Shown here: piece after piece, positions 8,592 to 8,674 of the stretch
Layout: every line of letters begins with the position of its first letter
How positions within the stretch are numbered: the stretch's first letter is position 1
Assembly (NCBI RefSeq): GCF_003334815.1
Contig: NZ_QOWO01000003.1
Direction: 5' to 3' (one strand)
From: Escherichia coli
GTDB lineage: Bacteria; Pseudomonadota; Gammaproteobacteria; Enterobacterales; Enterobacteriaceae
Length of the DNA stretch: 64,000 nucleotides
Notes under the pieces: generated by a model
Told to the model about the DNA's origin: nothing
What the model saw: the letters and a program-made list of their open reading frames with translations, nothing else
Database searches by the model: none
Program-made: the position numbers and the translations under genes

Positions 8592-8674
8592 GAATGTTTT
8601 AGCAATCTCTTTCTGTCATGAATCCATGGCAGTGACCATACTAATGGTGACTGCCATTGATGGAGGGAGACACA

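Follow-up and report, generated by a model that had tools for sequence, protein, structure and literature searches.

Between yjfC and aidB in Escherichia coli lies a short spacer containing a near-perfect palindrome, and the locus raises the question of what, if anything, this palindrome does. The aidB promoter is a classic and heavily studied one, and serves as a model for activation by Ada and for sigma-S selectivity; in the accessible part of the literature it is described as activated by Ada, transcribed by sigma-S RNA polymerase, and repressed by Lrp and by AidB itself. In a preliminary description of the DNA analysed here (a stretch of 64,000 nt, referred to below as the window), the palindrome was presented as a separate element immediately upstream of aidB, which lacks the T-run of a typical intrinsic terminator and may be either the operator of a dimeric protein or an RNA structure affecting the initiation of aidB translation. 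We develop the view, to which we give a probability of about 0.45, that the palindrome is part of a read-through insulator, by which only transcripts started at the aidB promoter would be translatable.

Sequence, position and copy number of the inverted repeat

The sequence at 8625-8657, as read from the window, is CATGGCAGTGACCAT-ACTA-ATGGTGACTGCCAT. The arms occupy 8626-8639 and 8644-8657, enclose the 4-nt loop ACTA (8640-8643), and are complementary at 13 of 14 positions, the sole mismatch being G8634 opposite G8649; when the arms are extended to 18 nt (8622-8661), 16 of the 18 positions are complementary. The near-perfect palindrome and its sequence are thus as first reported, except that the leading C8625, from which the repeat had been counted, remains outside the pairing, just 5' of the left arm, which begins at 8626. 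The placement between the yjfC stop codon (8589-8591) and the aidB GTG (8675) is likewise confirmed. Coordinates in MG1655 (NC_000913.3) equal window positions plus 4405600, so that the end of yjfC at 4414191 is 8591 and the aidB GTG at 4414275 is 8675. In the list of open reading frames, yjfC occupies 7428-8591 on the plus strand (4413028-4414191 by the same offset), with a translation that ends in RFVPHYIAG, and aidB, also on the plus strand, occupies 8675-10300 (4414275-4415900).

Allowing no more than one mismatch in 14-nt arms and a loop of up to 10 nt, the window has three inverted repeats; the expected count, from 200 dinucleotide shuffles, has a mean of 0.15 per 64 kb, and 10.5% of the shuffles contain at least one such repeat. 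As DNA, 8620-8663 folds with -13.9 kcal/mol (z -5.83 against shuffles); as RNA, the 14-bp stem, with seven G-C pairs and a 4-nt loop, has -20.1 kcal/mol. One of the other two repeats, at 20978-21006, reads AACGCCGACCA-T-TGGTCGGCGTT, is followed by TTGCTTTTG and preceded by AAAAA, and resembles an ordinary, possibly bidirectional, intrinsic terminator. The remaining one, at 60899-60930, has a 4-nt loop, lies around CCCTGTTGCCTGCACTCAGGTAACAGGG, and has no obvious T-run.

The locus 8592-8680 is found in 5424 of 5426 complete E. coli genomes, at a median of one place per genome, and the region 8450-8850, beneath yjfC and aidB, is present in 5425 of the 5426 at 90-100% identity. Elsewhere in the 64-kb window the half-site has no match, apart from one with two mismatches. 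A single-copy locus, with a half-site essentially confined to it, is not a dispersed repeat of the REP, BIME or MITE kind, and this identity was rejected. So was that of a known RNA family: a scan of 8300-9000 against Rfam 15 gave only chance-level matches of at most 15 bits, and no family at its gathering score. A full-text literature search with the palindrome sequence and aidB returned nothing relevant.

The core promoter of aidB

The palindrome overlies the core promoter of aidB, from -23 to +9, with the -10 element at its apex and the transcription start in its right arm. A published model of the -10 element has its zero coordinate at 4412260 and the start at 4412272 on NC_000913.2 (supplement, including file 23, of bioRxiv 10.1101/2020.02.05.936344). 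Numbers in NC_000913.2 equal window positions plus 4403623, which was verified by finding, at window position 8115, a stretch of sequence printed in the supplement. The -10 hexamer is CATACT at 8637-8642 on the plus strand; its first base, -12, is C (PMC3141248), as in promoters of the sigma-S type. The hexamer shares bases with the last part of the left arm (-23 to -10) and with the loop (-9 to -6), and the right arm extends from -5 to +9, the dyad centre being at -8/-7. The start itself, G8649 on the plus strand, is at the stem mismatch, with the hexamer 7 nt behind it and the GTG 26 nt ahead. A -35-like CTGTCA at 8613-8618, also on the plus strand, is suggested by its 18-bp spacing to CATACT. 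The Ada box on the same strand, AAT-N6-GCAA at 8593-8605, has its A box at 8593-8595 and its B box at 8602-8605, and by our own arithmetic relative to +1 it spans -56 to -44. The published promoter, with CATACT preceded by -13C and carrying -12C, the start at 8649 and Ada boxes at -56 to -44, agrees with the window.

To call the repeat a separate element immediately upstream of aidB is therefore misleading, and the suggested comparison with the mapped promoter places both the -10 element and +1 neither upstream nor downstream of the repeat but inside it. Because +1 lies inside the right arm, mRNA made from the aidB promoter holds just 9 nt of that arm and cannot form the palindrome hairpin. 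A simple sigma-70 promoter scan at the locus found nothing, which is uninformative, because the aidB promoter is a weak one of the sigma-S type. The accessible literature, to which the primary promoter papers (Landini 1994, 1995, 1996; Lacour 2002, 2003, 2004; Rippa 2010) do not belong, contains no mention of dyad symmetry over the aidB promoter and gives it no role. One base near the palindrome is in dispute: Lacour et al. gave G at NC_000913.2 position 4412248 (window 8625), and GenBank has C (supplement, bioRxiv 10.1101/2020.02.05.936344); this is the position directly 5' of the left arm.

Of 23 Enterobacterales loci, 21 have the hexamer CATACT at a fixed distance, -38/-37, from the start codon. 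Further downstream, TGCCATTGA-N-GGAGGGAG at 8652-8669 (+4 to +21) is conserved across Enterobacteriaceae, well past the Shine-Dalgarno sequence itself. A CsrA site over the Shine-Dalgarno sequence is one candidate for this leader motif; a reporter with the aidB 5' UTR was repressed by CsrA (PMC6028588).

Predicted structure of read-through RNA

RNA that spans the spacer is predicted to be strongly structured. The segment 8600-8675 folds with -35.3 kcal/mol (z -5.86), and none of 200 shuffles folds as well. The predicted 65-nt hairpin, 8606-8670, spans the spacer, with the palindrome as its apical stem, and is retained when the sequence is folded in a context of 146 nt. Its lower helix pairs 8606-8618 with 8658-8670 in 13 predicted base pairs, four of them G.U, and is separated from the 14-bp palindrome stem by a 7-nt bulge. 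The left half of the helix is the pyrimidine tract UCUCUUUCUGUCA (8606-8618, plus strand), predicted to act as an anti-Shine-Dalgarno sequence, and the right half, UGAUGGAGGGAGA (8658-8670, plus strand), includes the aidB Shine-Dalgarno sequence GGAGGGAG (8662-8669). The complementary strand folds with only -25.3 kcal/mol, because the four G.U pairs of the lower stem become C.A. Taken alone, the duplex 8606-8618/8658-8670 has -22.2 kcal/mol (p = 0.007 against genomic windows); when the pyrimidine-rich left flank is shuffled for comparison, the advantage of the lower stem is marginal (p = 0.06).

The probability that the Shine-Dalgarno sequence is unpaired is 0.004 in read-through RNA, as against 0.2-0.6 in RNA that starts at +1, and the RNA 8649-8720, counted from +1, has no significant structure (z +0.77). 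The idea that an RNA structure affects the translation of aidB accordingly fails for mRNA made from aidB's own promoter, and may hold for RNA reading through from yjfC. The sequence 5' of +1 is complementary, by predicted pairing, to the Shine-Dalgarno region, and +1 falls inside the structure, so that aidB's own mRNA is made without the 5' half.

In the part of the Term-seq tables of PMC7815308 that was accessible there is no sense-strand 3' end near yjfC or aidB, and the accessible parts of the tables of transcription starts and 3' ends in PMC3415461, PMC4782308, PMC7815308, PMC4161252 and PMC3923258 hold nothing for the aidB locus. Within the same portion of PMC7815308 a minus-strand 3' end is listed at MG1655 4415796 (window position about 10196), antisense to the end of aidB; the entry apparently comes from data with bicyclomycin, an inhibitor of Rho, and probably reflects read-through from the convergent yjfN.

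Variation within Escherichia

Over 8592-8680, 4172 of 5424 E. coli genomes have at least 99% identity to the window, which with an 89-nt query means no mismatch. The variants sampled among the rest change 8618 (A>G), 8619, 8626 (A>G), 8643 in the loop, 8645 (T>A or T>G), or 8672. The A>G changes at 8618 and 8626 turn A-U into G.U pairs, and the changes at 8645 open two pairs adjacent to the loop; none of the sampled variants is compensated. All natural E. coli variants that were examined retain the hairpin, at -33 to -35 kcal/mol. In one strain, whose yjfC is fragmented, 1 nt is deleted from the right arm and the hairpin has -28.3 kcal/mol; this single case fits with relaxed constraint. The yjfC gene is fragmented or partial in three Escherichia loci, L012 (E. 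albertii), L087 (NZ_CP144926.1) and L092 (GCA_900450065.1), and these carry stem-weakening variants, either 8626 A>G together with 8645 T>G or the 1-nt deletion in the right arm.

The palindrome across genera

Loci of aidB were collected from reference genomes, from contigs encoding specific AidB proteins, and by a pattern scan of metagenomes. Among the loci compared, the long palindrome is restricted to Escherichia. Scored in the pairing register of E. coli, 14 of 16 positions are Watson-Crick pairs in E. coli itself and 12 in E. albertii; all other lineages have 3-10, with different bases, and the arm sequence is not kept in Salmonella, Citrobacter and other genera that share the -10 element and the 5' UTR. 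Nor is there covariation in this register: across 47 distinct promoters, gapless in the paired region, 47.4% of the cells are paired; column shuffles give 46.4%, and 89 of 500 reach the observed value. The covariation score is 0.105 against 0.100. Judged from these alignments, conservation does not extend to the palindrome itself.

Taken by itself, the apical stem has significant structure in Escherichia and Salmonella only, and not in three other lineages in which yjfC adjoins aidB. Salmonella has an independent inverted repeat, of 10+5 bp, across the same -10 element. A recurrent dyad over the -10 element was considered and rejected: the weak repeats seen in the L099 group, Kosakonia and Citrobacter do not exceed what is expected from column composition. 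In Kosakonia radicincitans (L095) an independent inverted repeat, GCATTGAGGT ... ACCTTCAGTGC, some 9-10 bp long and including two G.U positions, extends across the -10 element from about -29 to +9; the gene upstream is divergent there, and the repeat is not explained by a read-through model.

In Citrobacter (L002, L003 and L024) the sequence corresponding to window 8606-8636 reads TGTGACCTGAATCCCAGGCAC-TCTCTTGTCTGGC-TGACCATACT, and relative to it Escherichia seems to be about 13 nt short between ATCCATGGCAG and TGACCATACT. The missing 13 nt or so would have shifted a TGTCA motif into the -35 position. Several genera also carry TGTGA-N6-TCCCA, which resembles a CRP site centred near -43.5.

The whole-spacer hairpin and the gene upstream of aidB

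The loci were classified by the gene located 5' of aidB, using tblastn with YjfC, RlmB and a transporter of the major facilitator superfamily (MFS), together with Pfam contexts, and the spacers were folded over -84..+3. In the 13 distinct spacers where yjfC lies directly upstream, with no terminator, z ranges from -2.6 to -5.9 and the folding energy from -27 to -42 kcal/mol. The 22 distinct spacers preceded by rlmB and a canonical terminator have z from -2.7 to +1.05, and the nine preceded by a divergent MFS-transporter gene have z from -1.5 to -0.2. The yjfC-adjacent loci represent six lineages, namely Escherichia, Salmonella, C. sedlakii, Phytobacter massiliensis and two metagenomic groups; compared with 24 other lineages, these differ with Mann-Whitney p = 6.7e-6 for z and 2.3e-4 for folding energy, although the six are not fully independent, because their spacers are homologous. 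A stable whole-spacer hairpin is thus specific to the yjfC-adjacent lineages.

The stem sequences differ between these lineages and the total stability is similar. Salmonella (-35.1 kcal/mol, z -4.9) forms its stems from TCAATGGCGCAGTCA...TGACTtcaGCGCCATTGA and, across the same -10 element, from TGACT-tca-GCGCCATTGA; the L093 group has a near-perfect anti-Shine-Dalgarno tract, UGUGAUCUCCCUCCGUCG; and Phytobacter massiliensis pairs GCGG with CCGC and CUCCCUUCGUU with AACGGAGGGAG. In a consensus fold of seven yjfC-adjacent spacers the lower stem is kept, and the changes within it are of the type C-G to U.G and lie on the left side only. This stem is unable to covary, because its Shine-Dalgarno side is invariant. 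The Shine-Dalgarno sequence is also partly masked in the other classes of gene context, and pairing with it is easily obtained, because a purine-rich sequence pairs with any pyrimidine tract. Across Enterobacteriaceae aidB leaders, anti-Shine-Dalgarno pairing is not significant outside the yjfC-adjacent lineages, and as a general feature of these leaders it was rejected.

At its 5' end, the ancestral left half of the hairpin reads TTTTGTGATCT; Escherichia has TTTTAGCAATCT there, the Ada B box. The lower stem of Escherichia is weak and rich in G.U pairs, and the palindrome probably supplies the missing stability. With respect to the Ada box itself, Escherichia has AATGTTTTAGCAATCT at 8593-8605 and every non-Escherichia lineage (L089, L090, L008 and L093) has ACTTTTGTGAYCT; since GCAA of the B box stands where those lineages have GTGA, Ada control of aidB may be specific to Escherichia.

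A possible read-through insulator

If the folding predictions hold, read-through RNA from yjfC is most likely the only place where the palindrome matters, and it presumably has no role in aidB mRNA itself. The co-oriented yjfK-L-M-C genes upstream of aidB, of which yjfC is the last, are the presumed source of such RNA, which, with no intrinsic terminator before aidB, would run into the gene. In this RNA the whole 83-nt spacer would form one long hairpin, 8606-8670, where the pyrimidine tract holds the Shine-Dalgarno region in a helix that the 14-bp palindrome, by closing the interior, locks in place, so that ribosomes would be barred from starting on aidB. Transcripts from the aidB promoter, under control of Ada and sigma-S, would be made without the 5' half of the hairpin, leaving their ribosome-binding site free, and translation of aidB would in this way be coupled to its own promoter. 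By further extension, untranslated read-through RNA might be exposed to termination by Rho and trimmed back to the hairpin, which might then shield the 3' end of the yjfC message.

With somewhat less confidence, we suggest an evolutionary version of the insulator model. Enterobacteria may have kept such a device, in differing sequences, wherever yjfC abuts aidB, telling transcripts of aidB's own promoter from read-through of the upstream yjfKLMC operon at the level of translation, and the Escherichia palindrome may have restored stability after an Ada box was made out of the 5' end of the ancestral hairpin. The promoter is already well known and the mechanism has clear precedent; the comparative association is clean. 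If the insulator model is true, chromosomal genes share with IS10 and IS50 a trick against outside transcription (see below); an RNA that a promoter never makes can shape the spacer and the initial transcribed sequence of that promoter; and reporters that include DNA upstream of -45, or aidB placed behind a foreign promoter, would under-report translation.

Alternative explanations

Because family-wide covariation of the palindrome is absent, chance is a serious rival, and the main one, even though we consider it unlikely on balance that the palindrome is an unselected by-product of promoter rearrangement in Escherichia, with no function of its own. The -35/-10 spacer and the first transcribed bases would have been free to vary; with the gain of the Ada box and the loss of about 13 nt relative to Citrobacter, ATGGCAG would have landed beside TGACCAT, opposite the widely conserved TGCCAT (+4 to +9). 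The restriction of the long palindrome to Escherichia, the lack of register covariation across the 47 promoters, and the uncompensated variants at 8626 and 8645 in E. coli and E. albertii all agree with such an origin, as does the chance rate of about 0.15 such repeats per 64 kb, which amounts to about ten per genome. The TGCCAT of the right arm, moreover, is conserved in genera without the left arm, and must be kept there for another reason. What a by-product does not account for is the strong and specific tie of the whole-spacer hairpin to yjfC adjacency, in six lineages with different stems, together with the independent 10+5-bp repeat on the same -10 element of Salmonella and the maintenance of -33 to -35 kcal/mol in every E. 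coli variant seen. If the palindrome is a by-product, it is simply the known promoter and needs no further attention. A Rho-independent terminator of the yjfK-L-M-C operon is a far less probable identity. The hairpin is strong and G+C-rich enough to be called a stem-loop of that sort, begins 15 nt past the yjfC stop in a spacer with no other terminator, and genera with rlmB ahead of aidB have a canonical terminator at the corresponding position; the G+C content of the stem is only moderate, however, and a U-tract follows neither the 14-bp stem (UGAUGGAG) nor the extended one (CACAGUGC), the bases 3' of the stem being TGATGGAG. The lack of a T-run, already pointed out in the preliminary description, and a terminator scan of 8400-8800 that found 0 sites led us to reject an intrinsic terminator.

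Two readings place the function of the palindrome in DNA, and both seem to us improbable. The operator suggested earlier would bind a dimeric repressor and occlude the -10 element and the start of the aidB promoter. A near-perfect dyad centred on -10 is indeed in the classical position for steric repression, and aidB is repressed, according to the accessible literature, by Lrp and by AidB itself. If one regulator were shared, the half-site should have been preserved, yet it is not kept in Salmonella, Citrobacter, Kosakonia and Enterobacter, despite the retention of the -10 element, the 5' UTR and the gene, which makes a shared sequence-specific operator unlikely. In addition, arms of 14 bp exceed the usual length of a half-site, the 64-kb window contains no other good copy of it, and the extension of the hairpin uses G.U pairs, which are meaningless in duplex DNA. 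The binding sites of the known regulators lie upstream of the palindrome: Ada has its boxes at -56 to -44, and AidB reportedly prefers AT-rich UP elements, as far as the accessible sources go. We know of no protein that binds the palindrome. With as little confidence we would assign it a role as a cruciform or an element sensitive to supercoiling, by which the -10 element would be masked or made accessible, or as a symmetric bidirectional promoter. The position of the -10 element in the loop and the stability of the DNA hairpin (-13.9 kcal/mol, z -5.8) are in its favour; extrusion in vivo is another matter, 14-bp arms with a 4-nt loop being short for it. For a bidirectional promoter, the minus strand over 8643-8638 reads TAGTAT, a better -10 element than CATACT on the plus strand, with which it shares bases, and the symmetry of CATACTA matches the shared -10 geometry of bidirectional promoters, whose divergent starts are typically 18 bp apart (PMC12825309). 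By our reading of the sequence, though, the minus strand has no -35-like or extended -10 element, and a role in DNA predicts neither the association with yjfC adjacency nor the asymmetry between the strands (-35.3 versus -25.3 kcal/mol).

Comparison with known systems

Several known arrangements resemble parts of the aidB spacer. Operators of repressors that overlap -10 and +1 have the dyad symmetry and the position of the palindrome, and differ from it in that the palindrome half-site is unconserved among orthologous promoters and its arms are unusually long. Protective 3' stem-loops, said to have been described by Dar and Sorek in 2018, are reportedly left after Rho-dependent termination and trimming by exonucleases; like them, the aidB spacer has a stable hairpin without a U-tract soon after the last stop codon of an operon, but here the hairpin also contains the promoter and the Shine-Dalgarno sequence of the next gene.

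The proposed logic has its likeness in insertion sequences, for which a literature on structures that sequester the ribosome-binding site exists. Davis, Simons and Kleckner are said to have reported, in 1985, fold-back inhibition of translation of the IS10/IS50 transposase in read-through transcripts, and the phenomenon is reportedly covered in the 1998 review by Mahillon and Chandler. As in aidB, the inverted repeat of IS10 and IS50 flanks the gene's own transcription start. RNA from outside has both halves and sequesters the ribosome-binding site, and RNA from the internal promoter, which is missing the 5' half, is translated, just as we propose for aidB. Unlike the transposase genes, aidB is a stress gene that sits in the chromosome beside an unrelated operon and belongs to no mobile element; its -10 element sits in the apical loop, and the mechanism suggested for it comes from folding and comparison only.
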